Source: a virus
Virus record (IMG/VR): IMGVR_UViG_3300030333_002628
Coordinates: 7,266-71,265 of that record
Strand: one strand, 5' to 3'
Length of the DNA stretch: 64,000 nt
The notes below the pieces were generated by a model that searched no databases, was not told the origin of the DNA, and was given only the letters and a program-made list of their open reading frames with translations. Positions 5,901-64,000 of this stretch are shown in pieces. The translations under genes and the position numbers were made by a program. The number at the start of each line of letters is the position of its first letter. Within the stretch, counting starts at the first letter, position 1.

Positions 5901-8900
5901 CTTCTTTCCCACAGGGCTTTAAACATAAAGCACTTCACGCAAAATGGATGCGAGACTTGCCTCTCTCTTTGTGGTTCAAATATCATTTTGGTAGCATTCA
6001 AAACGTCCCAATATCTACAGGTCATCTAATATCAGCAGTAACACCTTCCTCTACAGAAGTTAGAATTACGTCAGAAATGTATTGGCAATTGAAAAACGCC
6101 GGGGAAGAAAGTGGTATAGGCGAGTTAGTAAGTGCCTCATCTAGCGGGGATAAAGTTTCTCATTTCATATACAGGGGATTGAAATTTGCCTCTCCATTAT
6201 CTACAGATAATAGATATTATTTGACAGGGGTTAAATTTATTAGCAAGGATTTTGCGGGTGGTGCTGCAACTAAAGTAAATATATGCAGAATTTATAATGA
6301 TTACAAACACCTATGGATTCTCTGGGCAGATATGAGAAATAACGGGGATGCTGATGCAGACGGAGGGTATAGAAAAGATAGTTTTGGACTTAAATACCCC
6401 ACCACAGAAAACTATGATGTTTCTTTATTCTTTACAGATAGTGTAACAGAACAAGGAAAACCAACAAAGTTTACTGATTTGAAAATAGGAGAAGATATAG
6501 ATATTTGGGAAGTAGATGCCACTAATGACCCCTCTACTGGTGTTGCTTTCTCCAAACCCATAGATTATGACAATTCTCTTCTTGTAGAGCATGGTAAGGG
6601 AACTGATGATATAGATAACAACGGTGGTTTTACTAGAATAACTAAGAACGGTCACGGTCTATCTCAAGGAGATTATGTATACGTCTGGGATATAAAAGAG
6701 GGCGGAAGCCTAGACACTAGTGGGCGATACAAGGTAACTAATGTAAGTGGAGACGCATTTACCATTGGTCTTGCTTGGGGATTAGGGCAGAATGGGACTA
6801 CTTTTGGTAATGATATTTACCCTTCAATTTGGTTTGCTAAAACCGTTGGCTCGTCAATAGCAGATGCTAAATACCAAGATTGGGAAAACAAGGGTGGTGC
6901 GTTTGTAATAATAGACTCTTCTAAATTCTTTAACCTAAACACTATCGCAAACGGCGGTAGGACTGGGCAAGACGCGGGTGGGCAAACAAGATTAGAAGAG
7001 TTTGTAGCATCTACCAGAGGACACCCAGCGCTTATTGATAATTACTACCAAGAGGCAATAAGTCACGGAAAAAATGTAGAGGGGCTTTTTGATACTCACC
7101 CTAATTCAGATAAACTACTTTTCGACTCTACTTATTTAACTTCTAATGTAGGGATGAGACATTCTGCTATATTTGTAAATGATGTATCTCAATTTCCTGA
7201 AACTGGAATGGGTAAATTAAATGTTATTAAAAATACTGGTGGCACTAGGGTAGATGACTCCATAAAATATTATGTGGTTTGGGGAGGGAAACATTCTACT
7301 AAATTACAAGGAACTGTGACTGGGTTTAACGCAGCCTTTGGGTCTACAAGCCCTACTATAGAAATCATAGATATAAATACTGATGTAACTCCAGTAAAAA
7401 ACGGAATGATAGTAACGCATGACAAAAATGGTAGGAAATACAGAGTTATTAATAATGGGACTGCTGCTGGTGGTGGTTCAGGCTCTAACGTATTTACATT
7501 ACACCCTTACGATTTAGATGATAATTTACGCATTAACAGCGCTAATGATACCGCATGGCAAGTAGGGGACAGTTACACAGTCGATACTCAACTATACAAG
7601 ACCATGATTATTTCTCCTTCGGAAGTGTTTTTGAGACCGGAAAGCATTTTTTATGAGGCAGGTTATGGTAGAGCAACAGGAGAGTTAATTTTTGATAACG
7701 CACCCACTACTTCTTCTTCTACTACTGATATAAGCACTACTAACGGGGCTACAATAACAATTAGGTCATGGTTTAAAAACCCAAAACCTTGGCCGACAGA
7801 AGACAGCCCTAGAAATGTAAGAATGGGAGAACCTATAACATACATCTTTAGAAGCGGGCTAGGTGCATTCGGCCAAACTACCACTACAGAAAACTTTAAC
7901 GGGGCTATACACAGTAGCCTAGACATTACTGACGCTTCTGATTTCCCAAATACTGGTAAGGCTTGGTTATATTTTAGTGGTGATAACTATAATGATGGTG
8001 GGTGGAAACTAATTACTTATACTGGTAAATCGGGCAATAAACTAACTGGCATTACTGGAACATATTTTACTTATCCTTCTGGAACTTCGATTCATGCCAG
8101 CAGAAAAGACCCTACACACCCACAGTATGTCAGGGTTAATGGAACAGGAAATACAACCGCTATAGCGACAGATTTAATGGCTGCAATAAACAGCGTAGAC
8201 GGTAATAATGATGGTGTTGTTGATTCCAAAATTAGGGTAGTTCAAGATACCAATAGATTATCTTTTGAGCAAACAACAATAGGCTCTGGTGGAAATAGTG
8301 AAATTATAGTAACAAAATATGGCAACCAATCAGACTTTACTTCACAGAGGGGTATGCAAGGTGGGGCAGATTTAGAATCAATAGCAACTATACAGAATGA
8401 ATCTACTTTACCAAGAGAACTAAGTAGACTATACGAGTTACACATTAGTAACGACAGGTCTTACAACGTTCCCATAGACCTAAGCCAAGATTCTGCGGTG
8501 ATTAGTAATTCACTTTCTCCTCAATATGCTCTGCGAATGATGATGCAGATAGAAGGAAGCGTTAGGAATAAAAACGCTGGAACTTATTTCGACAACGATA
8601 AATTTAGAACTTTATGGCAAGCAGCGTCAATGAATACTTGGCTTCCCCCAACTAATATCAACGTCCCTATGGATATTAACAACGTTCCCATTACTACTAT
8701 GATGGCTTACGATGGTGGCGCTACTAATAAAAATGATTTTGGCTCTACTGTAGACAGTAGAAATAAAACTCTAGGTGCAACTATAGCAGCAGTCAAAAAG
8801 ACTAGCGGTTACAGCGATGAAGGAAACTATATGCCTTTCACAAAAGTTATGGGTCGGGATGGGAGATTAGATTTTAGACCTAAGTTCAATAGTGGTATAG

Positions 8901-14244: not shown

Positions 14245-14567
14245 TCCTCTTCTTTATTAGTTACTCCGTTGTCCCAATCTTCTATGCGACTTTGCATGGG
14301 GTCTAGTGGCTTATTACAAGCAGGGCAAGTATCTTGTGGTGGTAGAGCCTTTAGTAGAGGCTGAACAACCCTTTGGCCGCAATGCTCACACTCTATCTCT
14401 TTTATTAATTCAAAATGGTCTAGTATACCAAATATGAGACCATTAACTCTGGCTAAATCTGCACCAACAGCCTCTATCAATTGCTTAACTGTAGCATCTA
14501 TTTCAGATATAGCACGCTCATTCTGTTTAGCAGTAGGCTTACCTGTAAACTTCCTACTTCTACCCAT
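14241..14567 (-). CDS. Zn-finger protein
   Basis: CEHC...CPAC after a helical N-terminus; starts 29 nt below a TTTATATGCGG box. Confidence 0.6.
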   Translation of the reverse strand: MGRSRKFTGKPTAKQNERAISEIDATVKQLIEAVGADLARVNGLIFGILDHFELIKEIECEHCGQRVVQPLLKALPPQDTCPACNKPLDPMQSRIEDWDNGVTNKEEE

Positions 14568-25485: not shown

Positions 25486-25728
25486 TTACCAACCTTTACT
25501 ATAAACGTAGTTCTGTAGGCTACGCATCTGACTCTTGGATAACCCCCAAGCCTCACCTACTGATTTACCTGTTAAACTATAACCACCAACAGACCAATCT
25601 ATCCCAGTAGATAGAATAACTGCTACTACTCCATCATCTTTCATTGCTTCTACTAACTTGGGCCATTCGTCCTTGTTTATCGCACGCGCATTAATGGTGT
25701 TCCTATGCCCACTTCTCCACCGCTTCAT
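25486..25728 (-). CDS. Hypothetical protein
   Basis: 80-aa ORF with ATGA overlap to the upstream gene. Confidence 0.55.
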   Translation of the reverse strand: MKRWRSGHRNTINARAINKDEWPKLVEAMKDDGVVAVILSTGIDWSVGGYSLTGKSVGEAWGLSKSQMRSLQNYVYSKGW

Positions 25729-26393
25729 GTTGCTGCCCCCTTTGGGTATGATTCTACGGGATAGCGCAGACTCTTTAATGCTTTCTTTCTGAATCTCTTG
25801 TTTCCGCAGAGAAAAATATACCTATGTTTTCTAGGTCTCTCTTGCATATAGAATCTGTCACCATACTTCTCTCGGATTAACTTACCTCTGTTTTCATGCC
25901 CCCTAAATTCATCCGCTATTGTTTGGCTGTGTAGGTGTTCTAGTCCCTTTATCTTCCAATCAGTTCTCTTTGCACTTAAACCAGTATAGAGAAAATTCGT
26001 GGCTTGGTAGACAATACCTAGATGTTCTTGTGAAGTATCAGCATAAGAAATAACTATTGCGTCTTGTTCTTCCTTCAATAACCGCAAACTTGCACCGACA
26101 AGAATGCTGGCTTCATTATGTAGATTATTCTTTAAACAAAGTCGGTTTAATTCTAACACTTGATGTTGGTAATCTTCCCCAGCCACGCCCTTCCTCAAGG
26201 TAGCGCTGAAAGGAGTTCCGTAAGTTACTACACCTACTAATTCTAATGTGTCTAGTTTGATTAAACCGTAAGCGTAAGTAACACTAGGCCATCTCTTAGC
26301 ATAATGGATATTTAATATGAAGTCTTCGCAATCACTTCTTTTAACAGGTATTACATCGTATTCTTCACGCATCATCCACAACCTCAAAATCAA
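25725..26393 (-). CDS. Mom-like GNAT-fold DNA modification protein
   Basis: HYAKRWPS, GVVTYG, LELNRLCL, VISYADTSQEHLGIVYQATNFLYTG and KHRY match my recollection of phage Mom-like adenine-modification proteins. Confidence 0.7.
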   Translation of the reverse strand: MILRLWMMREEYDVIPVKRSDCEDFILNIHYAKRWPSVTYAYGLIKLDTLELVGVVTYGTPFSATLRKGVAGEDYQHQVLELNRLCLKNNLHNEASILVGASLRLLKEEQDAIVISYADTSQEHLGIVYQATNFLYTGLSAKRTDWKIKGLEHLHSQTIADEFRGHENRGKLIREKYGDRFYMQERPRKHRYIFLCGNKRFRKKALKSLRYPVESYPKGAAT

Positions 26394-35483: not shown

Positions 35484-35763
35484 TTATTGTATGTGCGTAT
35501 CTGTGCAAGTCTTCCCATGATTCTAAATCACCTGCTTTAATGGTGAAATCATCTAGGTCGGCCTCTGGTTCAAAGATAATGGTTAAACTTACACCGAAAG
35601 AATGAGACTCAGGGGTTTCACTCTCGCCACCGTCCGCCGCTATCTCGTAAGCCACGCCGTTATGAATTCCTTCCCATCTCACGCGGTCTCCTCCTTGTTT
35701 ATCGTGTGCGTTGGGTCGGTGCTTATCTCCCAGCCTGACGGGGTATCGTAGGTCTTGGGGCAA
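35464..35763 (-). CDS. Hypothetical acidic protein
   Basis: Co-oriented ORF; start uncertain. Confidence 0.45.
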   Translation of the reverse strand: MPQDLRYPVRLGDKHRPNAHDKQGGDRVRWEGIHNGVAYEIAADGGESETPESHSFGVSLTIIFEPEADLDDFTIKAGDLESWEDLHRYAHTIIDNGGW

Positions 35764-35984
35764 GGCTCAATCTCCGTGTTCATTGGGCGCATCCAGTCGC
35801 GGTAGAACTTCCCGCCCTCTAGGGGGGATGGGTTCAGCCATGTCTTCATCTGGTGGTTGCTCGTCTTGTTATAGTAAGCCACTAGTGCCTCATCTATAAC
35901 CTGCGCCACTTCTGCCGTTCTTTCTTTAGTCATGTGGTGAAATGCAATACGCATTCTCCATAATTGGGGTTCTTGTTCCGCCAT
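35679..35984 (-). CDS. Hypothetical protein, first gene of the leftward transcription unit
   Basis: ATG 29 nt below TTTATTAAGGGGTATG. Confidence 0.6.
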   Translation of the reverse strand: MAEQEPQLWRMRIAFHHMTKERTAEVAQVIDEALVAYYNKTSNHQMKTWLNPSPLEGGKFYRDWMRPMNTEIEPCPKTYDTPSGWEISTDPTHTINKEETA

Positions 35985-35997
35985 AAATCCCAGACAG

Positions 35998-36013
35998 CAT
36001 ACCCCTTAATAAA
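35998..36013 (-). promoter_or_regulatory. Promoter class TTTATTAAGGGGTATG
   Basis: 29 nt above the ATG at 35984. Confidence 0.75.
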
Positions 36014-36135
36014 CCCACCGATTTACCTAGTGTAGAAAGTAAACCAGCATTATTTAAAGTATGTATTATTCTAAGTCTTAGGATAGCGGGTAAAGTAGAT
36101 TTGCTTTAGCGGATAAAGTAGGTCGGCGGAGGCGC

Positions 36136-36354
36136 TACCTACAAATTTCTTATCTACAAACCTTATCTACAAATGAAGTTATCTACAAATCACGTGGGTA
36201 TAAGTAGTTTGCTAAGGGTTTATGTAGTGGTTTTCTTATCTACAAAGAAAAATCCATTGCGTGCGTTCTAAGGCCGGAAAACGAAATCCAGGTCTCAAGG
36301 TAGCATCGCCGGGTAGTTCGCGCTCAGATTGCACGCCAGACGATTTGTAGATAA
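36136..36354. repeat. TTTGTAGATA repeat cluster 1
   Basis: 4 reverse copies (TTATCTACAAA) and 1 forward copy, plus degenerate copies. Confidence 0.95.
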
Positions 36355-36600
36355 CACCTATAAACAAATTTGTTGATAGGTAAGTGTAGATTCTGCACTA
36401 ATGGTTATTTTTGTAACCTAATGTAATGTATACAGCAGGTGTATTTTGCCACACTTAGTAACTTTTTAGTATTTAATGTTATTTTTGCACGAACTTTACC
36501 TTTTACACCAATTTTAATTTCAGATACCTAGTGCCTCTATCACATCAGGTAATTTTTCCTACATCTGGTGTTATAATTACACCGCCTCACTCGGCCCATG

Positions 36601-36746
36601 TATCTACAAAGTTGTAGATAATAAACTTAGCGGTTTACTTTTTGCACTAACTGTGGGCGCGAAGCGCAAGTGTGATTTCCAACACCTAGTGTAATTTTTG
36701 CACCGCCCCCAGGCGCGTAGCGCCTACCTACAAATTTGTAGATAAG
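36601..36746. repeat. TTTGTAGATA repeat cluster 2 (two palindromic pairs)
   Basis: TATCTACAAAGTTGTAGATA at 36601-36620; TACCTACAAATTTGTAGATAAG at 36725-36746. Confidence 0.95.
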
Positions 36747-36788
36747 GGGGGCGTGGGGTTAATATAGTAGGGGTGCGTAGGGTGAGAC

Positions 36789-37196
36789 ATGGCAATTGGC
36801 GGACATGGAACCATCAACCACTATACTGACGGTGAAACTAGAATAGTCATTAGACCACAACCTGTATTATACACGTTAAAGGAAGTGGTGGTAGGTATGT
36901 GGGACATTGACAAGACGACTGACTGGGATGACGAAGGTAATCAAACTGTTAAACTACACGAAACCCTGTGGCAAGGGACGATGGAGAGATACGGTAACAG
37001 GAAGGGTATGGTAGAATACCTATTAATTCACGTTTACGAGAATGCTATCAGGAACCCAGATTGGTGTCCTACAATAAATACTAACTCAAGATATGACGAA
37101 ATCCCCGATGGGTGCAGAGGTAGAATAGAAGACTTCGTTCTTAGAATAATGCCTACTCTACGTGGAGACAAGCACCCTCACAGGGAGGACGGCTGA
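36789..37196 (+). CDS. Hypothetical protein (island cassette 1)
   Basis: ATG 30 nt below TTAATATA; followed by a T-rich tract. Confidence 0.7.
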   Translation: MAIGGHGTINHYTDGETRIVIRPQPVLYTLKEVVVGMWDIDKTTDWDDEGNQTVKLHETLWQGTMERYGNRKGMVEYLLIHVYENAIRNPDWCPTINTNSRYDEIPDGCRGRIEDFVLRIMPTLRGDKHPHREDG

Positions 37197-37276
37197 AGCG
37201 ACTCACCAGAGACGGAGGTATTTTGACAGTTATTTTATTTTTCTATTTTATTTTTTATTTTTCACAGATATTTTTC

Positions 37277-37336
37277 TTTGTAGATAACCTATAACCAAAT
37301 TTGTAGATAAGGGCTTATCCACAAATTTGTAGATAA
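37277..37336 (+). repeat. TTTGTAGATA repeat cluster 3
   Basis: 3 forward copies plus a degenerate reverse copy, then a TTCATAAC box at 37350. Confidence 0.95.
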
Positions 37337-37378
37337 CCTGGCCGATGGGTTCATAACCTGGTAGGGGGTAGCGGTGGT

Positions 37379-37588
37379 ATGAGTGGCGAAGTAGACTGTC
37401 ATGCAATACCAGAAGAACTAACTTGTGTCCTCTGTGGTTTACCGATTAAAACAGACTGGGCGGGATGGAAGTATGGGCATAATGCGTTACCTGTTAAAGT
37501 AGGTCGAGCCTGTGATGATTGTCAGATTACTGTTATTCTACCTGCGAGAATAGGTATGATAATAGATACAGTAGGGGAGGAAGAATAA
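37379..37588 (+). CDS. Small Zn-finger protein (island cassette 2)
   Basis: CVLCG...YGHNALPV..GRACDDC...VILPAR; ATG 29 nt below TTCATAAC. Confidence 0.7.
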   Translation: MSGEVDCHAIPEELTCVLCGLPIKTDWAGWKYGHNALPVKVGRACDDCQITVILPARIGMIIDTVGEEE

Positions 37589-37590
37589 CC

Positions 37591-37767
37591 ATGATTCCAC
37601 ATCAGGTTGTATGTGATGGGTGCGGGGAGACTCACTTCCTAGATACTATAACAGAAGTAGTAGAATGGATGAGTGCCCACTACGATGCCTGTGATGACCC
37701 GAAGGTATACAAGAAACTCATAGTTAATCTAAAAGATAAACTAGAATACGAAGGGAGGTTAGAATAA
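37591..37767 (+). CDS. Small C2H2-like Zn-finger protein
   Basis: MIPHQVVCDGCG...WMSAHYDAC; GGAGG SD. Confidence 0.6.
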   Translation: MIPHQVVCDGCGETHFLDTITEVVEWMSAHYDACDDPKVYKKLIVNLKDKLEYEGRLE

Positions 37768-37769
37768 CC

Positions 37770-37919
37770 ATGAAATCATGTGAAGTAGACATTGATGACG
37801 ATTGCGTTGGTGAGGCAGAATATCTGGTCTTGGGCTTGCACACACGAAGATATTGCTGTGGCCCTTGCCTAGAACACGCGCCGGGCGATGTAGATATTGT
37901 TAACATTAAAGTAATGTAG
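37770..37919 (+). CDS. Small Cys-rich protein (49 aa, not in ORF track)
   Basis: Manual translation MKSCEVDIDDDCVGEAEYLVLGLHTRRYCCGPCLEHAPGDVDIVNIKVM; GGAGG SD. Confidence 0.6.
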   Translation: MKSCEVDIDDDCVGEAEYLVLGLHTRRYCCGPCLEHAPGDVDIVNIKVM

Positions 37920-37995
37920 TCAAAAAAACAGTTAAACTAGGTCAGATATTTTAATTTTTATTTTATTTTTCATTTTTTCACTCAAAAGGGGCGAA

Positions 37996-38064
37996 ATTTG
38001 TAGATAAGCCCCCAATATACCCAAATTTGTAGATAAGAGCGCTATATACAAATTTGTAGATAAG
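37996..38064 (+). repeat. TTTGTAGATA repeat cluster 4
   Basis: 3 forward AAATTTGTAGATAAG copies about 27-29 nt apart, then TTCATAAG at 38076. Confidence 0.95.
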
Positions 38065-38104
38065 AGAGCGACAGGTTCATAAGGTGGAGGGTGGTGGTGG
38101 TGTC

Positions 38105-38356
38105 ATGGCGAACTACCCAAGAGGGAAAAACACCGATACAATAAACCTAACACCAAGTCCTAGCGGATTCTTCGATATGCTATGGCTCATTGCTACTTCA
38201 AGTGAAAATGTAGGAGACAGGGAGTATGCTAGAAGAACGCTTAAAGCAGGTTACATACGTGGTTTAGCAAGTATACCAGATGACCTAGAAGGTAGTATAA
38301 CAGAAATGACAAGCGGGGAACCAATCGAAGATATGATTCCTGACGAGAGGGAGTAA
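38105..38356 (+). CDS. Hypothetical protein (island cassette 3)
   Basis: Start set at MANYPRG, 29 nt below TTCATAAG. Confidence 0.65.
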   Translation: MANYPRGKNTDTINLTPSPSGFFDMLWLIATSSENVGDREYARRTLKAGYIRGLASIPDDLEGSITEMTSGEPIEDMIPDERE

Positions 38357-38357
38357 A

Positions 38358-38525
38358 ATGGCACTATCAAGAAAGCACTTCAGAGAAATGGCGAAGGCTT
38401 GCGCTCGCCTCCCTGATGATGATAACAAAACAGTTATTGTAAACACGCTCGCTAAAATAAATGCTAACGCAAACCCCAGATTCCAGAGGGGGAGATTCCT
38501 AGCCGCTTGCTATAGGAAGGAGTGA
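38358..38525 (+). CDS. Small conserved phage protein (55 aa; SRKHF...NPRF...RFL.AC)
   Basis: Manual translation MALSRKHFREMAKACARLPDDDNKTVIVNTLAKINANANPRFQRGRFLAACYRKE. Confidence 0.65.
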   Translation: MALSRKHFREMAKACARLPDDDNKTVIVNTLAKINANANPRFQRGRFLAACYRKE

Positions 38526-38606
38526 CCGTTAAAGTAACTGGGATCGAAATAGTTTACCTAGTATTTTATATTTTTATTTTACTTTTTATTTTTATTTTTT
38601 CTTTTT

Positions 38607-38798
38607 ATTTGTAGATAATTTTTTATTTGTAGATAACGGCTATCTACAAATTTGTAGATAGGAGGATGCTGCGATTCTTATCTACAAATATTACCTGGCG
38701 GCTTATCTACAAATTATTATCTACAAATCTGAGCCTGCCGCTTATCTACAAATATTCATCCCTGCTTATCTACAAATGGATTCACACTATCTACAAAT
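38607..38798. repeat. TTTGTAGATA repeat cluster 5 with orientation switch
   Basis: 2 forward copies, the perfect 20-bp palindrome TATCTACAAATTTGTAGATA (38641-38660), then 6 reverse copies. Confidence 0.95.
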
Positions 38799-38865
38799 GG
38801 CTCGGAAGGCCCAAAAATGGCCTAAAATAACGGTGACTATAAGTAGCGGTGGCCTCTCACAGCAC

Positions 38866-39000
38866 CTGCCGACTTGTCGGCCTACCGAAATCTGGCTGGG
38901 AACAGTCAGAAGAACCCGCGCATCCTGATGCGTTTACAGCCCTGACAAAAAGGGGCTGAGGGGGACTTGACGCAGAAAGACGAGTCGGCGCTCTAAGGAG
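38866..39000 (+). ncRNA. Candidate structured 5' leader / cis-regulatory RNA
   Basis: Starts about 30 nt below ACTATAAG (38836). 11-bp closing stem 38868-78/38979-89 encloses three hairpins, one with a GGAA tetraloop. Ends at the AAGGAGG SD. Confidence 0.55.
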
Positions 39001-39009
39001 GAAAAACGA

Positions 39010-40551
39010 ATGGAAAACAGATATGTAGCCATGCGAACCATCCTACTAACCGCCCTGCTTCTCGCAGGGGCCGGAGTAGCGTCTGCCACAGATGACTCTG
39101 TGGTGGTCGAGAAGAACGCCGACATTGGGGGCAACCTAGATGCCTGCTCAGAAGATCGAGTGGTTATCACTCAGGCAGCCCTCAGACTGACCGATGAGCC
39201 GACTGTGTGCCATCCTAACGCGGACTGGAAAGCCCGTAAGAGGAGGCGCACTCTGGCCGCCAACAGTAAGGCACAGAAGGGGGCGCGAGTCCCCAAGAGC
39301 CACAAGCGGAACGGAGAATACCCCATCCGCAAAAACCTGTTGAATCGGCCCGCCGCCATGTCTGTCGCTGGCATTCAGCCAGAGTCAGGGATGAACGCGG
39401 AACAAGTGATTGAAGTCACCGGACTCGGAGACTGGCATTGCGAGAAGACCACGCAATATGCCCGAACCGGAGAAGTGTTGACGCTATACAATCAAACGTC
39501 TGAGGGACAGTTTGAGGCTGTTGAAATCCCCCAATATGAAGAAGTGGTGAACACCAAAGGCAACCTGCAAAGGCTGACCCGCAGAAGTGACACAAGGGTT
39601 CAATTCGGGCCTGTTGGAGACAATTACACCGTCCTCCAGCACTCCGATGCAATCCGAATGGTGCATGATGTGGTTGATGCCCTTGAACTGGACTGGGAGT
39701 ATGTTGGGACTGTTGATAATGGTCGCAAAATGCACGCAGCCCTACTCATGCCTGATGATGCTGCCTTCGCCCTGCCCGACTTCAATGACGGACAGGAGAA
39801 GTTACAGCAATACATCGGTATCACGAACCAGCATGACGGGAAGGGGGCATTCTCCTTCTCGCAGTTCGTGATGAGGATATGGTGCTGGAATCAGTTCGTA
39901 GCCACATTGGGCGCAGTCGGGAACAAGGGTAAGTCAGCCAACGCTGATGTGTCCTTCCGAAAGACGTTCAGGCACAATCAGCACATGGAAGCGAACATCG
40001 CAAAGTGGTCGCAGGTCATGGCGCTGACAACCCAGCATAACAGGGCTTACATCGAACTGGTGGAAGAACTGCTGGATGTGCCGATGGATATGTCTGAGCG
40101 CATTAACTTCTACGTGAACCACTTGGGCCTCAAGGGGCATCAGAAGCGCGTAGAGGCGGACGGAACTAACCCTTACGGGCTATCCACCAAGGGCCAGATA
40201 AAACTAGACACGCTGCTAGACTTGGAGACACAGGAACAGAACCAAGTCGGGCGCATGGATGGGACTGTCTGGCAGGCTGTTCAGGTGCTTCTTGACTACT
40301 ACGACCACGAATACCTCTACGATAAGCAGGGGGACGTTTCCTTGGCACGTGCAAAGGATTCGCTACAAGGTCGGGTGGCAAAGAGGAAGGTGCTAATCCA
40401 GAAGTGCGGATTGATGTCCATTCAGGACGAATCAGCATGGAAAGAGCAGGTGTCCTTCCACGCGCACCTAGTCGAGAAGGATGATGACCCAGAGGACGAC
40501 CCAGAAGCAGAGGAGAACGCGCTTCTGGATGCGGCCCTAGAACTGGCCTAG
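39010..40551 (+). CDS. DUF932 / TIGR03299-like phage-plasmid protein with N-terminal signal-peptide-like extension
   Basis: GLGDWHCEK, RRSDT....GPVGDNYTVLQH, GTVDNGRK, ITNQHDGKGA, MRIWCWNQ, RHNQ, GTVWQAVQ..DYYDH; AAGGAGG SD. Confidence 0.8.
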   Translation: MENRYVAMRTILLTALLLAGAGVASATDDSVVVEKNADIGGNLDACSEDRVVITQAALRLTDEPTVCHPNADWKARKRRRTLAANSKAQKGARVPKSHKRNGEYPIRKNLLNRPAAMSVAGIQPESGMNAEQVIEVTGLGDWHCEKTTQYARTGEVLTLYNQTSEGQFEAVEIPQYEEVVNTKGNLQRLTRRSDTRVQFGPVGDNYTVLQHSDAIRMVHDVVDALELDWEYVGTVDNGRKMHAALLMPDDAAFALPDFNDGQEKLQQYIGITNQHDGKGAFSFSQFVMRIWCWNQFVATLGAVGNKGKSANADVSFRKTFRHNQHMEANIAKWSQVMALTTQHNRAYIELVEELLDVPMDMSERINFYVNHLGLKGHQKRVEADGTNPYGLSTKGQIKLDTLLDLETQEQNQVGRMDGTVWQAVQVLLDYYDHEYLYDKQGDVSLARAKDSLQGRVAKRKVLIQKCGLMSIQDESAWKEQVSFHAHLVEKDDDPEDDPEAEENALLDAALELA

Positions 40552-40586
40552 CCCGGATCGAGTGAGTCCACTTCGGAACAACATAA

Positions 40587-40657
40587 GTCAGCAGGGGGGG
40601 CAGAGAATCGCCGCCCCTGTTGACCCACTTTCTGCGCGGTTTTTTTTCGGTTTTTTC
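40587..40657 (+). terminator. GC-rich hairpin followed by T-tracts
   Basis: GTCAGCAGGGG...CCCCTGTTGAC stem, then TTTTTTTT. Confidence 0.65.
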
Positions 40658-40659
40658 GC

Positions 40660-40986
40660 ATTTGTAGATAAGAAAATCCCATTTGTAGATAAGGATTTTG
40701 ATTTTATTTGTAGATAAGATTTTTATTTGTAGATAAGATTTTGATTTTATTTGTAGATAAAAATTTGTAGATAAGAGGAATTTTTATTTGTAGATAATTT
40801 TTTGGGAAATTTGTAGATAAGAAAATTTGTGTATAAAAATTTGTAGATAAGAATTTGTATGTAATAATTTGTAGATAAAAATTTGTAGATAAGATGGCGT
40901 AGCCTAAATTTGTAGATAAGGCTAGTGCTGTAAATTTGTAGATAAGAAGCCAGGTGAAAATTTGTAGATAGCCCGCTTATCTACAA
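40660..40986 (+). repeat. TTTGTAGATA repeat cluster 6 (densest)
   Basis: 14 exact forward copies, 2 degenerate copies and a final reverse copy, with spacers of 1-15 nt. Confidence 0.97.
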
Positions 40987-41021
40987 TTATTGCTTATAGG
41001 CAGATACCCATTCCGCTATTC

Positions 41022-41144
41022 ATGGCAAACGGAAACAAGCCTACGAAGCACAGCCAGAAACCGCCCAGAGTTACCTTCCTGATGGAAGTGACCTTCGATG
41101 AGCAGGGTTGCACCCTGCAAATCTTCGATGTGAGGAGGGTCTGA
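41022..41144 (+). CDS. Small hypothetical protein (40 aa)
   Basis: Manual translation MANGNKPTKHSQKPPRVTFLMEVTFDEQGCTLQIFDVRRV; ATG about 28 nt below TTATAGG. Confidence 0.55.
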   Translation: MANGNKPTKHSQKPPRVTFLMEVTFDEQGCTLQIFDVRRV

Positions 41145-41145
41145 A

Positions 41146-41583
41146 ATGGATAAGGACGCGCCGATATTCCGAGGAGAGAAGATCGAAATTCCTCAGCACA
41201 TGGTCGAAGACTACCTTCACATTCTGGAACTTGGCTACGGCAACCCCCACAGCCGAAACCCAGATGATACCGAGAAAATAGACGCTCTACGCATCCTCTT
41301 GGGCAGAATGACAATCCAAGAAGAGGCAATTCAAGAACTCTGCTCGGAAGTATTCGACAACCCCAACAGACACCCGAAACTCTACGAGAATGAGGAGGAT
41401 ATGAGGCACTACGACCTTAAGCCATTCACCGACCTATGGCTAATGTATGCGAGTGATTCCAAACTCTACGCATCACAGGGAACCCTAACAGACGCAGCAC
41501 TTGAGGCAGTTAAGGAATACGAGCCAGAGAGCGACATTGAGGCCCGATTTGCCGCAATGGTTCAGAGGGGAGGGGGTTATTGA
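41146..41583 (+). CDS. Acidic hypothetical protein
   Basis: 145 aa; GAGGAGG SD. Confidence 0.7.
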   Translation: MDKDAPIFRGEKIEIPQHMVEDYLHILELGYGNPHSRNPDDTEKIDALRILLGRMTIQEEAIQELCSEVFDNPNRHPKLYENEEDMRHYDLKPFTDLWLMYASDSKLYASQGTLTDAALEAVKEYEPESDIEARFAAMVQRGGGY

Positions 41584-41760
41584 ATGACGGAATTGAGAAT
41601 TGGTCTAATTACTTCCCGCTACCGAGTTTCCCATCCTCAGATTCGACATGACCCAGAGATGGCGGAGAGGGTCAAGAAATTCTTGGCAGAGAAGCAGAAG
41701 GAAGACCGAGATCGAATGTGGGCCAGATTCGCAGAGGAGTTAGACGGACTATTATCTTAG
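41584..41760 (+). CDS. Small hypothetical protein (58 aa)
   Basis: Manual translation MTELRIGLITSRYRVSHPQIRHDPEMAERVKKFLAEKQKEDRDRMWARFAEELDGLLS. Confidence 0.55.
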   Translation: MTELRIGLITSRYRVSHPQIRHDPEMAERVKKFLAEKQKEDRDRMWARFAEELDGLLS

Positions 41761-41769
41761 AAATTCTAC

Positions 41770-41816
41770 GGTGGCGGGGGTGTTTCCGTTCAATTTTCCC
41801 CCGCTACCAAATTTTT
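41770..41816 (+). terminator. GC-rich hairpin followed by T-tract
   Basis: GGTGGCGGGGG...CCCCCGCTACC 11-bp stem right after a stop codon. Confidence 0.6.
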
Positions 41817-41826
41817 CCAGGCTACG

Positions 41827-42040
41827 ATTTGTAGATAATTTTTGAGGCTACGATTTGTAGATAAGGCCAGAATTTGTAGATAAGAATTTGTAGATAAGAA
41901 TTTTAATTTGTAGATAATTTTTTCTTTTTTTATTTGTAGATAGGCGAAAATTTGTAGATAGGGGGCCAGGCCAGGATCGGCGGCCAAAATCGGAAAAAAA
42001 TCCTGCCTGGAAAATCGGCTGAATCCGTCCTTTGTAGATA
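41827..42040 (+). repeat. TTTGTAGATA repeat cluster 7
   Basis: 8 forward copies; the last is just upstream of TTCATAAG (42047). Confidence 0.95.
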
Positions 42041-42075
42041 GGACTATTCATAAGGGGCAACACTATCCCAGAGCC

Positions 42076-42807
42076 ATGCAATCCGGCAATGGAATGTTAG
42101 AAGTAGTAAAATTGAACGCAAAAATAGGGGCTGAAACGGCAGCCTTCCTCAGAGAGAACGGCATGGTGCTAACTAGGGCACAGAACGCCATTCTAGTGCC
42201 AGAGGAGGCCGCCCACATGATGCTCTCGATTGAGGGGCAGATTCAGGCCGTAAACTGGGCCAGAGAGACCCAGAAGAACGGCCTAACGCCAGCAGAGAGG
42301 CCCGACTGCGAATGCGGGGGACACCTGAACGCAGATTACGGCCTATCGGACAGAATTCCGACCTGCTCGCGCTGCCAGACCCCCAGATTCGCGGGGACTC
42401 GCTCAATCAGGGAGAAGGTCAGCCAGACCTACGAGCCAAGCCTGTCAGACCACGTAGACGGGTTCACCTTGGTGATTAGGGACGAGCCAAAGAGAAGGGC
42501 GCTCAAGAAGACCCAGAGCGAAAGGGGCGGCCCTTGGGAGACCCAGACCCTATTCTGTGGGGCAGCAGTCCGACTAAGGGGCTTCGGGGAACAACTGTGG
42601 GCCTTCACAGACAGCACAGGCCGCTATTGCGGTGAGGGGCTTCTATGGGCCTTCGGCGTGTCCCCTAGTGGCATAACGGGCATTGTGGCAATCCACCCAG
42701 CCCAGACCGCGCAGTTCGTAGGCAGGGTTCAGATGACAGCCGACCCCTTCGACCTACTAACCACAGTAGACGCACCCAGCGCACTAATCCGCACCTACTG
42801 GGGCTAG
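42076..42807 (+). CDS. Hypothetical Zn-ribbon-containing protein
   Basis: CECGG...CSRC; ATG 29 nt below TTCATAAG; GC-rich. Confidence 0.7.
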   Translation: MQSGNGMLEVVKLNAKIGAETAAFLRENGMVLTRAQNAILVPEEAAHMMLSIEGQIQAVNWARETQKNGLTPAERPDCECGGHLNADYGLSDRIPTCSRCQTPRFAGTRSIREKVSQTYEPSLSDHVDGFTLVIRDEPKRRALKKTQSERGGPWETQTLFCGAAVRLRGFGEQLWAFTDSTGRYCGEGLLWAFGVSPSGITGIVAIHPAQTAQFVGRVQMTADPFDLLTTVDAPSALIRTYWG

Positions 42808-42976: not shown

Positions 42977-43363
42977 CTAAATTTTTGAAATGGGCTTTAT
43001 TAACTTCCAATGCTTGATGTTATTCTTTTTGGTTGTCAGAACTTCGCCGTTTTTCTCACATATACGCATGAATGCACCTACGGAATACCCATTCAATTGA
43101 GTCCACTTCGGAGGAACCTTCTTGTTGGCGGCTTCGGCAATTTGTGATGATGTCAACCACTCGCCTTCTGCGAAATAAGAAGACAAAGCCCACTCTATTG
43201 CTTCCGCAAATACCGTTCTCTTATTGTTGGGGCCGTGTTTTCTAACCTTGCGGTCTTGTAACTCAAACTTCTTACCAGTTCTCCTATTGCGAGTCTGGCG
43301 CTTATTACGCCCACCGTATGGCCCCTTACCCCACTTACCTGCCACGTATAACCCTCCCGCCAA
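42977..43363 (-). CDS. Basic wHTH-like protein
   Basis: EWLTSSQIAEAAN...LNGYSVGAFMR...HWKL. Confidence 0.55.
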   Translation of the reverse strand: MAGGLYVAGKWGKGPYGGRNKRQTRNRRTGKKFELQDRKVRKHGPNNKRTVFAEAIEWALSSYFAEGEWLTSSQIAEAANKKVPPKWTQLNGYSVGAFMRICEKNGEVLTTKKNNIKHWKLIKPISKI

Positions 43364-44831
43364 GAGCAGACTCCTTTCTATTTATCTTGTAACTTCCTCC
43401 CTGCCATTCCCCCTTCTTCATGGTCTTGAATACGGATGGCATATCTGGAGTCTTATACGAGAACAAATCAATTGCGTGTGCTAGAGCCATAGCACAGTCG
43501 TTATGCTTACCCAAATCTATTATCTCTCCATCGCGCCACGCATGACTCTCTAGTTCTTCTAGCACCATATTAACCATTTTCCTTGTTTCATCGTCACCAT
43601 AGGGAAAACATACTAGTTTACGCTCAAACCAAACCCTCATGCGGTTCAAAAGACCCTGCTTAAGCGTTTTATTACTCACTTTACTCTCTCTATAATCTAA
43701 TACTGCGCCCTTTTGAGAGATAAGGGGGTCATAAAGGTGCTGAAACCCTGCTGCTTCGACAGCAAAGGGGGGAGTCTTGTATTTCTTACTCCACTCAATC
43801 ATCATATCGGCCTGTCTGTCTGGAGGGAAGTCATTCCTACGCCACATATCTACGAAGTGAATATATCCTTCATCGTCTTGCGCTAAACATATCATAACGC
43901 TGTAGTCTTGTCCCAATCCATGTGCTGGGTCGAACCCAATACCGTATTTTAGACCATCTAACTTCTTAGGAGTCAGAACCGCATCCAGATTTAGGTTGCA
44001 TCTAGTTAAACTTCTTGGGAATACGCTCGCTTCGTCATCAATGACCTTACACATATACTCTTGAATAAAAGATAACTCTCCCATAGCCTCTTTCTGCTCT
44101 AACAGGAAATCTATAGGTCTAAATTCAGGCCATAACTCAATAGCAGTCACATTTTCGGGGTCAGCCTTGTATTCGTCCCAATTCTTGACCGCAGACCAAG
44201 ACCCACTCTTCCAAGTGTCGTTTTCTAACATCTCAGTATGATACAAGTCATTCATAGACATCGGAGTGCCTACACAATAGATAGAAGTGCCTGGAGAGAG
44301 CATAGGAGTGACCTTTTTCCTAAACCAATTCCTCAAACCGTCATAATTCATGTCACCAGTATCGTCTAATACGTCATCGAAGGCAATACAGGCCGGATGC
44401 TCACCACGAATCGCAGAACCAACAGATGTAGCCCGAATCCAAGCGCCATTAGTGAATCTTAACTCAAGTTTGTTGCCTCTACGGGTATCTAGGTATTTAC
44501 TTAACTGAGGGTGTCTTTTCATGTCATCTCTAATCTCTTCAAGCCTTCTAATTGCCAAATCTTTGCTCGCTGAGAATAGCCAGCACGAAAAGGGCTTATC
44601 GCGCCACTTTTCAAAGAGACATTGATGTAATAGTTTCACTCTGAGGGTAGTAGACTTACTGTGGTCTCTCGGTGCAATGACACAAACCCTATGGACTTGT
44701 TTCCCGTCTCTTTCACCATACATTTCCATCCATTCGCCAATATGTTCTCCCCACGTATAACCAAGCCACTTGTAAAAGTATTCTACGTCAGTTCTCGACC
44801 TAGCCATAGAGAAATCAGTTCCAAAAGTCAT
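43335..44831 (-). CDS. terL: Terminase large subunit
   Basis: Walker A APRDHSKST, IRGEHP, Walker B IAFDD, VGTP, FIQEY, RNase H GFDPA and HNDCAMALA. Confidence 0.95.
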   Translation of the reverse strand: MTFGTDFSMARSRTDVEYFYKWLGYTWGEHIGEWMEMYGERDGKQVHRVCVIAPRDHSKSTTLRVKLLHQCLFEKWRDKPFSCWLFSASKDLAIRRLEEIRDDMKRHPQLSKYLDTRRGNKLELRFTNGAWIRATSVGSAIRGEHPACIAFDDVLDDTGDMNYDGLRNWFRKKVTPMLSPGTSIYCVGTPMSMNDLYHTEMLENDTWKSGSWSAVKNWDEYKADPENVTAIELWPEFRPIDFLLEQKEAMGELSFIQEYMCKVIDDEASVFPRSLTRCNLNLDAVLTPKKLDGLKYGIGFDPAHGLGQDYSVMICLAQDDEGYIHFVDMWRRNDFPPDRQADMMIEWSKKYKTPPFAVEAAGFQHLYDPLISQKGAVLDYRESKVSNKTLKQGLLNRMRVWFERKLVCFPYGDDETRKMVNMVLEELESHAWRDGEIIDLGKHNDCAMALAHAIDLFSYKTPDMPSVFKTMKKGEWQGGSYKINRKESALGGRVIRGR

Positions 44832-45098
44832 TATCGTGGCCTCAATTCTTCTTCTCCGCAATAAGGACATTTGCGACCCTGTATTTTAGCAGTTAGCATA
44901 CTTTTAGCCATCCAACCGCAAGCATTACATTTGGCAGAAGTCCACATATTACTCATGCCCATACTTGTCATAAATCATTTCATTGCAACGAAGACACACT
45001 CTAATTTTACTTATAGGGAAAAGAACTGTCCCGCTTTCTGTTGGGAAAATCTTCTTACATACCGAACATTGAATCAGGTAGTCGTAGTGATGCACCAT
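44831..45098 (-). other. Two coupled small Zn-ribbon ORFs (44949-45098 and about 44831-44956)
   Basis: Manual translations: MVHHYDYLIQCSVC...CLRC and MSNMWTSAKCNACG...CPYCG; TAATG coupling at both ends. Confidence 0.55.
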
Positions 45099-46621: not shown

Positions 46622-46794
46622 ACAGGCTTGCAGTATAACGGTTTTTTTATTTCTTCAATTATTTCATAAGAGGTTTTAGTTAGGGAACCCTTACTATCTC
46701 TAAACTACCTTTGAAGAAATTAAAAAAATTAGCAAAAATAGAGCAATATAACGGTTTTAAACTGAAAAAAAGCCGAAAAAATACAAAAAGAATG
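46622..46794. repeat. Element B: inverted homolog of element A, between divergent genes
   Basis: Reverse complement aligns with 30344-30515 (AAAACCGT.ATA.TGC; ATTTCTTCAAAGGTA.TTTAGA; TAATTGAAGAA; TATACTGC.AGCC). Confidence 0.8.
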
Positions 46795-46834: not shown

Positions 46835-48223
46835 ATGGCAGAGCGTAGCATCTTGGATAAAATGCTTGGTCGAAACAAAGAACAGACCGTAGCGGCACGA
46901 ATTCCAACAAATAAGACGTTTCAGGTGGCGGCTGGTATACCTGATATAGTTAGAGATACAGAAAGGCTGAACAAAGACTCAAATTACGACAGCGAATTTG
47001 ATATGTATGATTTAATGCTTAAACTAGACCCAGAACTAAACGGGGCAGTTAGAGCAGTTAGCCTAACAGCAAATAACTTTGAGATTAATTACGACAAAGG
47101 ACGTAACGCACGCATAAGGAATGCGGTTCGTGATTTAGTAGAAGAAACTCTTGATTTCGATGACATACTAATTAACGCTATGAGAAATCTCATGGTTTAC
47201 GGTAACGACATCAACAAGATAGTAGGGAAGCAAGGAGTAGGCGTTACAGACCTACAAAATCTCCCCATTATGCAAATAAACATTGTAGATGAGAGGGGCG
47301 GTCTTGGTTCGTATTTCGTAGCAGATAAAGATAATCCAGTAGTTAAGCCAGTAACCTATATGCTTAGGGAGGCTACATCTTACGAGAAGGCCATACCCGC
47401 AGAGGAGATAATGCACATTAAAATTGACTACAGAAGCAATTGGTTTGTAGATAAGAAGGGGCGAAAGACCTACGGCGTTTGGGGTGCGTCCCGATTCTCG
47501 GCGCTTAAGCAGGCTATACGCATGAAGTATAACTCTCTGAATAACAGGTTGTCCCTAGAGGATAGTATGACAAAGCAATATATCACAATTGACAAGTCAG
47601 CCATAGAGCATATCCAAGACCCTGCCGAGCAGTATGACAGGCTTAATACTATAATGAATGATGTAATATCTCTGTTTGAGGGGCTTAGGGGAGACCAGAT
47701 TCCAGTATTGCCCCACTATGTAGAATTACATCACGTAGACTTAGGTAATTCTCTTCCTAACAGCGCAGACTTTTTAGACAGCATAAATGCTGACATTGCT
47801 GCCGTTCTTCAAGTCCCACGTGTAGCAGCAGGGCAAGAAAGAGGAAGCACATTCGCTGCCACTTACAATGCTAATATGTGGGCAGTCCAAGCCATCAGCA
47901 GAATGCACAAAGTTTTACAGCAGGCTTGCCGTGATTTGTTTTCCATGCACTTGACACTACTAGGCATAGAGCATAAAAAGTCAGAATTGCCGACCATAGA
48001 ATTTGATGCTATGGATAGCGAAACACCGCTTAATATTATGCAAAGGGCAAGCATGGGCTATGACTCAGGCATTTTAACACTCAATCAGGCACTTGAAATT
48101 CTGGATTTGCCAGCCGCAAAGAAAGAAGATGGGGAAAAGAGGAAAGAAGCGCCAGACCCCACGATAAACGAGTTACCACCTGAGAATTCGCAACCGGGGG
48201 CAGAGAATGAGCGACCAGAGTGA
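46835..48223 (+). CDS. Portal protein
   Basis: 462 aa, first gene of the head module. DPELNGAV, LMVYGND, EEIMHIK, YGVWGAS, IAAVLQVP, GILTLNQA. Confidence 0.88.
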   Translation: MAERSILDKMLGRNKEQTVAARIPTNKTFQVAAGIPDIVRDTERLNKDSNYDSEFDMYDLMLKLDPELNGAVRAVSLTANNFEINYDKGRNARIRNAVRDLVEETLDFDDILINAMRNLMVYGNDINKIVGKQGVGVTDLQNLPIMQINIVDERGGLGSYFVADKDNPVVKPVTYMLREATSYEKAIPAEEIMHIKIDYRSNWFVDKKGRKTYGVWGASRFSALKQAIRMKYNSLNNRLSLEDSMTKQYITIDKSAIEHIQDPAEQYDRLNTIMNDVISLFEGLRGDQIPVLPHYVELHHVDLGNSLPNSADFLDSINADIAAVLQVPRVAAGQERGSTFAATYNANMWAVQAISRMHKVLQQACRDLFSMHLTLLGIEHKKSELPTIEFDAMDSETPLNIMQRASMGYDSGILTLNQALEILDLPAAKKEDGEKRKEAPDPTINELPPENSQPGAENERPE

Positions 48224-63559: not shown

Positions 63560-64000
63560 ATGGGAACGGAATTAGTAAAGAAAGACCAATTGGAAGCAAG
63601 TCAGTCACTTCATTTTCATGTTAATGGGAATGAAAGGCTTACTATCGCTAACAACGGTAATGCGTCCTTTACTGGAACAATAACTACAGATAATGGAAGC
63701 CACTATGTTAAGGAAAAGGCTAACGCCGCCGGAGACAGCGCAGGTTATGGGCAGTTATGGGTCAAGAATGCCACACCTAACGAACTCTATTTTACTACGG
63801 ATGCAGGTGACGATATTCAATTGACTTCGGGAACATCTACCGCAGGTGGTGGTGGTGGTAGTGTAGATGCCGATACTAACTTAGCAAACAATCCCGTATG
63901 GACTGTCACATCTACAAGCGGTATAGGACTCTATATTGTGAGAGATAAAGACGATGCAAACTCAGACAAAGAGGTTGTTCGCATCCGTGACGACAACGCT
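63560..64000 (+). CDS. Tail fibre-like protein, truncated by window end
   Basis: GGTGA SD; MGTELVKKD...ERLTIANNGN...GYGQLWVKNATPNELYFTTDAG; no stop seen. Confidence 0.7.
   Translation, partial: MGTELVKKDQLEASQSLHFHVNGNERLTIANNGNASFTGTITTDNGSHYVKEKANAAGDSAGYGQLWVKNATPNELYFTTDAGDDIQLTSGTSTAGGGGGSVDADTNLANNPVWTVTSTSGIGLYIVRDKDDANSDKEVVRIRDDNA

Follow-up and report, generated by a model that had tools for sequence, protein, structure and literature searches.

What does a short DNA word do that is written out 45 times, always between genes, on a single 6-kb island of a viral genome? The question is raised by positions 36136 to 42040 of a 64-kb stretch of DNA (the whole stretch being "the window" in what follows, to which the coordinates refer), which comprises bases 7266–71265 of the 71,265-bp IMG/VR virus record IMGVR_UViG_3300030333_002628, rated complete by CheckV. 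The island that holds the copies is situated between position 35984, where the leftward replication genes start, and the genes for a winged-helix protein and the large terminase (42977–44870), and it contains a dozen short genes together with the gene of a 513-amino-acid (aa) DUF932/TIGR03299-like protein. An earlier inspection of the letters, made without database searches (the sequence-only reading), had seen in these copies a dense binding array for one protein and had offered four roles for it: an iteron-type origin, a centromere-like site, a shield for first-injected DNA, or an activator array. In our judgment, there is a somewhat better than even chance that the arrays are operators or upstream activating sites of one virus-encoded, type-specific regulator of a hypervariable accessory-gene island.

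The repeated word

The exact 10-mer TTTGTAGATA is present in 46 copies in the window, for 0.27 expected from dinucleotide-preserving shuffles, and the observed count was reached in none of 100 shuffles. Forty-five copies lie in 36151–42040 and one at 47444. The whole record also has 46 copies (34 forward and 12 reverse), none of them outside the window, while the control pattern (TTTGTAGATA read backwards) has 0 and 0 copies in the record. With at most one mismatch, there are 63 sites, 52 of these in 36100–42100. Extension into the flanks gives a full site of 13 nucleotides (nt), A-TTTGTAGATA-AG. At five places (36601/36611, 36725/36735, 37316/37326, 38043/38053, and 38641/38651), two copies stand head-to-head and form a 20-bp palindrome, TATCTACAAATTTGTAGATA or a one-mismatch version of it. 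Between copies on the same strand, the start-to-start spacing is irregular and without helical phase (13–30 bp, closest 13–14 bp, except for a single 57-bp gap).

All 45 island copies fall outside the 12 gene calls, although the island is 62% coding (P ~2e-19); "always between genes," as the sequence-only reading had put it, is thus accurate. Its clusters of 5, 3, 3, 3, 10, 15, and 8 copies are recovered once one-mismatch copies are included. The clusters had also been called oriented, which is right for most copies (they face the same way as the gene they precede) and wrong for six copies upstream of the DUF932 gene, which are reversed, and for several head-to-head palindromes. Two stray copies had been noted elsewhere: that at 47444 is exact, the second (50116) only a one-mismatch copy. 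With irregular spacing and mixed strands, the island arrays are not a simple tandem repeat, again in agreement with the sequence-only reading, nor do they follow a CRISPR pattern. No Rfam family was found (the single match, with E 0.37, was under its gathering score), and the tRNA search found none.

The arrays might have been assembly artefacts. In run X2, which belongs to a study other than that of the likely source sample, contigs cover the whole 7.9-kb stretch at 95–100% identity (9 of the 12 pieces at at least 99%) and each array is crossed by single contigs. Because contigs of an independent study span every array, the arrays are genuine. Two further IMG/VR contigs also carry them.

Related viruses: the same layout with other words

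A search with the terminase led to 44 related loci, in which words were then obtained from de novo k-mer counts. (The DUF932 protein, searched against viral contigs by exact peptide words, had found no relatives; the terminase reached them instead.) The two IMG/VR contigs mentioned above, L009 and L010, have the same word, in 33 and 34 exact copies, and the same gene order as the window; their coding flanks match it at only about 75% identity. The large array that is orthologous between the window and L010 (Cluster 6 below) has its copies intact, and the spacers and the copy number (14 vs. 13) differ. This exact retention of the word beside flanks of about 75% identity, together with the altered words of other relatives, supports strongly, though indirectly, the claim of a dense binding array for one protein.

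In the terminase relatives, equivalent arrays occur at the same place, downstream from the terminase and winged-helix genes, but with other words; a scan of related genomes was among the checks proposed by the sequence-only reading. The words of the relatives include ATTTGTTGGTAAG, AAATTTGTAGCATAG, AAATTTGTAGC.AAG, and ATTTGTAGTAG, and further TTTTTTGTAGGACAG, GTTTTGTAACGG, ATTTGTTACC, and ACTTCGTAGGGCTAA. At least eight word types are found in the relatives, with a common TTTGTA-like half; GCATAG and TTGGTAAG are examples of word types there. Four other records that are whole or nearly so have 18–73 copies of their word, each limited to one island of 3–10 kb; for one relative, 50 copies of the word stand against 0.09 expected. 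In record G001, sites are found in about 14 intergenic promoter regions. Two promoter forms recur among the relatives. In one, a reversed half-site abuts an A-rich stretch resembling the transcription factor B (TFB) recognition element (BRE) and a CTTATAAGG box; in the other, the palindrome lies 11–24 nt upstream of a GGTTCATAAGG box. The loci L029–L032 are without TTTGTA-type arrays and have one strongly conserved promoter word, containing TATATATA, before each island gene. Such a promoter word before the island genes argues that the intergenic repeats are promoter elements. A side observation in G001 (L057), beside a 13-copy array, is a G+C-rich stretch of about 350 nt without an open reading frame (ORF), at ~6900–7250 (record 46900–47250), which may be a non-coding RNA.

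The island is far more variable than its surroundings. Between the window and L010, the island proteins are 35%–56% identical or have no detectable relative, for 89% identity in the large terminase, and most island proteins form singleton clusters. Between L020 and L024, DNA identity is 93% across the terminase and winged-helix genes and as far as the 3′ end of the next gene, which encodes a zinc-ribbon protein, here called ZnR-250. Beyond that 3′ end, the islands are unrelated and the words different. As the two sequences stand, this is a sharp recombination boundary, and the island a mosaic module. Because the similarity stops there, the word belongs to an exchangeable module starting with the ZnR-250 gene. 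Similarly, L023 and L020 have large terminases 97% identical, winged-helix proteins 82% identical, and ZnR-250 proteins only 28% identical, and their words differ. The site is conserved amid drifting surroundings, and a change of island module brings a change of word.

These comparisons bear on two other explanations. Since the island adjoins the large terminase and winged-helix genes in every relative, the repeats could form a packaging (pac) region bound by a small terminase subunit. Some phages have pac sites with short repeats, and the relative G004 has a 119-bp end overlap, which suggests a terminally redundant or circularly permuted genome. However, the sites are spread over 6–9 kb and located at promoters, and a terminase 97% identical between viruses with different words is hard to square with terminase-specific recognition, so that we regard packaging as very improbable. 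The sites could also be those of a host protein, either a transcription factor used by the virus or a DNA-binding protein for which the array is a decoy. The words end in ATAAG or TAAG, like the 3′ part of the island TATA boxes TTCATAAG, and for a viral binder there are candidates only. However, viruses with 93% identity in their backbone DNA have different words, and at least eight variants within one virus clade are hard to explain unless the hosts differ. To a host protein we give little probability.

Searching cellular genomes and metagenomes for paired copies within 3–30 nt gave mostly chance pairs and no information on host genomes: among the matches listed, at least 177 of at least 237 loci had only two copies. 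The only archaeal metagenome-assembled genome among them, L132, has an unrelated perfect 18-bp tandem repeat and no protein similarity to the virus, and the only true relative among them, L198, is the same contig as L010.

Sites upstream of predicted promoters

In the island, a transcription unit consists of a T-rich block, then 3–15 copies of the 13-mer, a TATA-like box, and the ATG. TATA-like octamers starting 29–31 nt before the ATG are found at 13 gene starts of the window, including five island promoters, and many window gene starts with such octamers are located after a non-coding gap. This distance is the geometry of archaeal leaderless transcripts. On the plus strand of the island, the octamers are TTAATATA at 36759..36766 (starting 30 nt before ATG 36789), TTCATAAC at 37350..37357 (29 nt before ATG 37379), TTCATAAG at 38076..38083 (29 nt before ATG 38105), CTTATAGG at 40993..41000 (29 nt before ATG 41022), and again TTCATAAG at 42047..42054 (29 nt before ATG 42076). 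Motif copies stand 6–22 nt upstream of TATA-like boxes in the window; before 42047..42054, the last core of Cluster 7 ends 6 nt upstream of the octamer. At three promoters, the distance from the start of the nearest co-oriented copy to the ATG is 52, 53, and 54 nt, and the promoters of 37379 and 38105 are near-duplicates.

The same placement is found across seven genomes, where promoters were predicted from crude ORF calls and a loose TATA pattern, so that some of the 41 candidate leaderless-type island promoters will be spurious. The local motif is present at most 160 nt upstream in 30 of the 41. In none of these 30 does a copy overlap the interval from TATA to ATG, and in 28 of them the nearest core ends 5–26 nt before the TATA-like box. 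The position of the site relative to the predicted core promoters is constrained.

In archaea, activators bind upstream of BRE/TATA and repressors over it or downstream from it. Because the sites are always upstream of the TATA box and never over the interval from TATA to start, we lean slightly to activation over repression. Half-sites abutting the BRE could, however, equally block TFB.

Other promoters of the window are of different classes. Those of replication genes at 14567, 19063, and 30309 have TTTATATGCGG, those of three other units at 35984, 34919, and 46537 have TTTATTAAGGGGTATG, and these two classes may be temporal; the island promoters (36789, 37379, 38105, 41022, and 42076) are of the TTCATAAG type. 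The T-rich blocks (plus strand, 37228..37263, 37945–37978, and 38561–38616) are about 35–55 nt long and similar to each other, were flagged as repeats during mapping, and lie directly 3′ of genes and 5′ of motif clusters; they are likely oligo-T terminators. Two G+C-rich stretches without ORF, 36200–36340 and 38800–39000, lie downstream from TATAAGTAG-like boxes, themselves preceded by reversed motif copies. Long leaders or small RNAs are possible readings of both; Rfam gave nothing in either.

Candidate binding proteins

The protein that binds the word is most likely encoded in the island, because an exchange between viruses that are otherwise near-identical takes word and island together. 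Our best candidate for a type-specific binder, on sequence grounds, is ZnR-250 (42076–42807), a protein of ~250 aa with an invariant pattern of cysteines typical of a zinc ribbon. With an iterated hidden Markov model (HMM), the family comprises 17 loci or records; in a collection of 5.8 billion proteins, ZnR-250 has only 11 relatives, without Pfam domain. Between viruses with the same word, ZnR-250 proteins are 39%–100% identical, and between viruses with different words at most 39%. We judged 23 loci, each with at least 3.5 kb visible beyond the terminase, for arrays and for ZnR-250: 13 have both, 6 have arrays without HMM match, 4 have neither, and none has ZnR-250 without arrays. Of 19 observable loci above the array threshold, 13 therefore have ZnR-250. 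Among the six array loci without match, three have positional analogues of similar size, one has a longer protein, and two are of the TATATATA-promoter type.

The sequence-only reading had named the DUF932-like and winged-helix proteins as possible binders; neither tracks the motif type, and the ZnR-250 family does. The DUF932 protein of viruses with the same word is 35% identical to that of the window, for 30%–32% in viruses with different words, and the protein is also present in L029 and L030, both under the array threshold. The winged-helix protein has a confidently modeled, generic winged-helix fold and a basic tail (predicted local distance difference test, pLDDT, 81.5). Its domain is identical in L022 and L023 despite their different words, it diverges between L045 and G003 despite their common word, and the recognition helix in L031 is nearly that of the window, yet L031 has no TTTGTA-type arrays. 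A profile–profile comparison of ZnR-250 with the winged-helix family gave no relation. Passages of PMC6550527 describe repressors with identical helix-turn-helix (HTH) domains and different stoperator motifs, and for this reason the winged-helix protein is demoted to a second, weaker candidate and kept as such.

A winged-helix binder would also suit centromere-like or genome-organizing sites, with a protein that coats the arrays and thereby segregates, anchors, or compacts the genome, as with parC/ParR, tubC/TubR, or AspA. The parC and tubC centromeres are arrays of short direct repeats, which the 10–15-copy arrays resemble. Foldseek matches of the winged-helix protein include TubR (E 0.016–0.07) and AspA (E 0.09); however, these are weak matches among many generic winged-helix ones, all above E 0.01, and the protein does not track the word. 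No ParA, ParM, or TubZ-type NTPase and no integrase was found by Pfam in the 77 ORFs of the record that were scanned, and many small promoter-linked clusters are not expected of a centromere, for which the prospects are slim.

A second repeat and the question of an origin

Could the arrays instead serve replication? In an iteron-type origin or copy-control system, a viral initiator, possibly the zinc-ribbon protein, would open the AT-rich arrays as monomers, its dimers on the palindromes would autoregulate, and the diversification of the word would reflect incompatibility. Iteron plasmids work in this way, with initiator monomers on direct repeats and dimers on inverted repeats for autoregulation. 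Direct and inverted repeats of one site do occur together here, the spacers of the 15-copy array are AT-rich, and a type-specific word with a co-varying neighbor protein would suit a Rep/iteron pair. The island also starts where the leftward replication genes diverge, and the cumulative GC skew, the check proposed by the sequence-only reading, does have a minimum near 36000. As an origin marker the skew is uninformative, because it follows the coding strand; a second minimum lies at 46700. Unlike a single origin, the seven separate intergenic clusters extend over 6 kb, each at a fixed distance from a TATA box, and in G001, G004, and L023 the clusters stand upstream of many small genes. The spacing, moreover, is irregular and shows no helical phase. 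An origin in the arrays appears unlikely to us on balance, though it is the strongest of the rival readings.

At least as good an origin candidate is a 340-bp non-coding stretch, 36380–36720, at the divergence point of the leftward replication genes and the rightward island. Another repeat, ACCTAGTG, has all three of its exact window copies nearby (36025, 36526, and 36684), accompanied by repeated wTTTTTGCAC words. This repeat differs from the array word and is more widely conserved among the relatives; L037 and L031 have 7–9 clustered copies of ACACCTAGTG(TAAAAAA) in both orientations. Over the window, ACCTAGTG is not enriched (42 sites with at most one mismatch vs. 52 expected), and only its local clustering is notable. 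The stretch could be an origin or a second operator.

A probable regulator of the island promoters

Placement at many promoters, a fixed position upstream of them, and a word that stays conserved beside drifting flanks and changes by type along with the island all fit, as far as sequence can tell, a virus-encoded regulator. Of the four roles offered, the regulatory one is favored by the promoter-linked clusters, and the iteron origin and the centromere fit worse. A virus-encoded, sequence-specific protein would co-ordinately control the promoters of a 6–7-kb island between the replication and packaging modules of a magrovirus-like archaeal virus; the small accessory genes of this island are probably early genes or genes of host interaction. 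The word has a constant half, TTTGTA, and a variable half. Direct arrays, with their closest packing of 13–14 bp, would be read as single half-sites, and the 20-bp head-to-head palindromes by dimers. Occupancy beside BRE/TATA would then alter the recruitment of TFB and TATA-binding protein (TBP) of the host.

Several points weigh against this regulator and against ZnR-250 as its identity. Arrays of 10–15 copies far exceed what known archaeal promoters need; the large ones (10, 15, and 8 copies) may serve for nucleation with high avidity or as titration sinks, or they may have some further role. The DUF932 gene has six copies 210–330 nt before its ATG that face away from it, and AT-rich spacers with a mixture of direct and inverted repeats fit iteron logic as well. 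For ZnR-250, the minimum identity among same-word viruses and the maximum among different-word viruses meet at 39%, and the ZnR-250 HMM detects nothing in the three viruses with the ACTTCGTAGG word, where only a positional analogue stands in its place. At least six sites within 450 nt upstream are present for only 8 of 14 ZnR-250 genes (L045 has none). The AlphaFold model of ZnR-250 is poor (mean pLDDT 47), too poor for a structure search; the protein matches no Pfam, NCBIfam, or PHROG family, a protein atlas gave only scores below 0.85, and profile matches in the PDB, to zinc-ribbon proteins and MarR/MepR, are non-significant (E 0.02–0.8). The case for ZnR-250 as the binder is circumstantial, because all island genes are swapped along with the word, and a binder encoded by the host keeps a small share of the probability. 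Finally, the RNA evidence consists of metatranscriptome contigs from two runs of one sample, which in the island lie on the DUF932 gene (38962–40548) and on 42156–42318 inside the ZnR-250 gene; such contigs show neither starts, ends, nor expression levels, and may come from DNA carry-over. Of the island genes, only that of the DUF932 protein is well covered by these contigs, and some stretches of the island have no RNA contig at all. The contigs are a weak hint that the two genes are transcribed in the sea.

A more specific proposal, possible though we hold it with considerable doubt, would make the island a specificity cassette swappable by recombination. Monomers of ZnR-250 would read the bipartite 13-mer in direct arrays, its dimers would read the palindromes, and the clade would contain at least eight orthogonal types of regulator and site. 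Co-infecting relatives would thereby be kept from cross-controlling each other's hypervariable genes for host takeover or anti-defense, and the large arrays might additionally act as origin or titration sink. If true, the cassette would be the counterpart, in an archaeal and apparently lytic virus, of the immunity regions of lambdoid and Cluster A phages.

Layout of the clusters and genes

Cluster 1 (36136..36246) has four exact and one one-mismatch 13-mers, all on the minus strand, 150–260 nt upstream of the leftward gene 35679–35984. Cluster 2 (36344..36744, both strands) has three exact and three one-mismatch copies: 36344(+), 36369(+, one mismatch), and the palindromic pairs 36601(−)/36611(+, one mismatch) and 36725(−, one mismatch)/36735(+), the latter pair upstream of the promoter of gene 36789–37196. 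In Cluster 3 (37277..37335, plus strand), three exact co-oriented copies start 102, 79, and 53 nt before ATG 37379, and a reversed one-mismatch copy at 37316 makes the proximal site palindromic. The arrangement of Cluster 4 (37997..38062, plus strand) is alike, with three exact copies, all in one orientation, whose starts precede ATG 38105 by 108, 79, and 52 nt, and an extra reversed one-mismatch copy at 38043. Cluster 5 (38608..38797, both strands), upstream of the DUF932 gene, has 10 exact copies in the order +, +, a −/+ palindrome, and then six on the minus strand. Cluster 6 (40661..40987, plus strand), between the DUF932 gene and the promoter of 41022–41144, has 14 exact direct copies and one reversed one-mismatch copy, with AT-rich spacers and decayed copies; its orthologous array in L010 has 13 copies. 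Cluster 7 (41828..42040, plus strand) has eight exact co-oriented copies upstream of the zinc-ribbon gene 42076–42807.

The plus strand of the island starts with six small, predicted leaderless genes (36789–37196, 37379–37588, 37591–37767, 37770–37919, 38105–38356, and 38358–38525), most without relative even among close kin and several with CxxC pairs. The DUF932/TIGR03299-like gene follows (39010..40551, plus strand, 513 aa), with the two largest arrays on its flanks. Its G+C content is 52%–53% (about 41% in the genome), the N terminus of its protein has a hydrophobic segment resembling a signal peptide, also in L010, and the protein is only 35% identical to the copy of the closest relatives. 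The gene appears to be fast-evolving and may have been acquired; the literature on DUF932 gave no function. Three small plus-strand genes (41022–41144, 41146–41583, and 41584–41760) have no relatives in the loci examined. Then come the ZnR-250 gene (42076..42807, plus strand, 243 aa), the first of the exchangeable island module, and, on the minus strand, the winged-helix gene (42977..43363, 128 aa, with a basic N-terminal tail), which comes right after the gene of the large terminase and is part of the conserved backbone.

Around the island, Pfam and PHROGs identify the structural module of a tailed virus (portal protein, cement protein, tape measure, tail tube, and large terminase) and, on the minus strand, a replication block of archaeal type with a family B polymerase, an RFC-like clamp loader, a Cpn60/TCP1 chaperonin, an ERCC4 nuclease, a PD-(D/E)XK nuclease, and a Mom-family protein (25725–26393, Pfam E 6e-39), the last a hint of DNA modification by the virus. 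An exonuclease/metallophosphatase gene adjoins the terminase. The magrovirus gene set, as given in parts of PMC5434244, agrees with this one, and an exonuclease beside the structural genes is described there as a trait of magrovirus group C. In the phage collection, no named relative was found; because the best terminase matches there are <24% identical, the magrovirus label and a Poseidoniales host are assigned here by inference from the gene content. As to the ends, the record ends inside one open frame (63560–64000) and begins inside another (genome 1–621, L307, with a tail-fiber chaperone domain), so that the contig is probably a circularly permuted or slightly incomplete assembly.

Comparison with known systems

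The closest likeness is to the stoperators of Cluster A phages, which passages of PMC6550527 describe as short, asymmetric, multi-copy sites of the L5 gp71 repressor family, situated in short intergenic spaces and mostly in one orientation, with a motif that differs between related phages and correlates with the divergence of the phage-encoded binder. According to parts of PMC9283540, a monomeric two-domain protein reads the asymmetric stoperator site. The present sites share the asymmetry, the multiple intergenic copies, the orientation bias, and a word varying with the virus, and here too a candidate binder co-varies. In contrast, Cluster A stoperators, as those passages have them, are scattered genome-wide, mostly single, and block elongation in a temperate phage, whereas here 45 of 46 copies are in one 6-kb island, in arrays of up to 15. 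The sites of the present virus stand upstream of promoters, after the T-rich blocks, and not inside transcription units, and its candidate binder is unrelated to the stoperator repressor family. By Pfam, the 77 ORFs contain no integrase and no HTH immunity repressor of the Cluster A type, though small or divergent proteins could be missed.

Haloarchaeal tailed viruses of the HF1/HF2 group have intergenic repeats (IR) of classes I and II, presented in sections of PMC7230728 as AT-rich, placed relative to transcripts, and containing functional promoter elements. The likeness lies in promoter-related, AT-rich intergenic repeats of archaeal tailed viruses with neighboring genes for small CxxC proteins. 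However, those halovirus repeats are, from the same sections, long promoter-holding units strongly conserved in the HF1 group, whereas here a 13-mer is repeated 3–15 times beside ordinary promoters and is diversifying.

Other regulators offer partial parallels. In SSV1 (F55) and phi29 (p4), a virus-encoded regulator uses repeated sites at several viral promoters in a temporal program, as the putative regulator might do here. The F55 sites overlap the TATA box or the start and are few per genome, whereas those of the present virus are strictly upstream and number dozens. Upstream activating sites of archaea, such as those of Ptr2 in Methanocaldococcus and TFB-RF1 in Pyrococcus, lie directly upstream of BRE/TATA and recruit TBP or TFB. 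The position is alike here; those systems, however, have one or two sites and regulators of known cellular families (Lrp-type and others), whereas here there are up to 15 sites and a candidate viral protein. Iteron plasmids and oriR/incA of phage P1 resemble the island in that direct repeats of a site accompany inverted ones and a candidate binder is encoded next to them; the word types might serve as incompatibility groups. An iteron origin has one or two regular clusters, whereas here 7 to about 20 irregular clusters are tied to promoters, and no known Rep fold or family was detected.

Confinement to one island, arrays of up to 15 copies, a position strictly upstream of TATA, and at least eight words in one clade of archaeal viruses are what distinguishes the present case. 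The main texts of the magrovirus papers searched (supplements were outside the search) contain no such repeats and no description of promoters, intergenic regions, iterons, or replication origins, and a full-text search for the motif string gave, among the matches listed, no paper on archaeal viruses or microbial DNA repeats. Within these bounds, no described counterpart was found, in agreement with the sequence-only reading.

Significance for marine archaeal viruses

Viruses of marine group II archaea are abundant, and both virus and host are uncultured. To our knowledge, nothing is known of the timing of gene expression in these viruses. The arrays give a testable handle on it, with a 13-bp site, two candidate binders, and predicted leaderless promoters, and the at least eight site variants, with matching protein variants, form a natural series for recognition rules. 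The arrays also mark the hypervariable island, the likeliest seat of genes for host takeover or anti-defense, so that the repeat signature alone could serve to locate the island in new metagenomic contigs. If word and regulator do form orthogonal types exchanged by recombination, the tailed viruses of open-ocean archaea would diversify in the manner of immunity regions.

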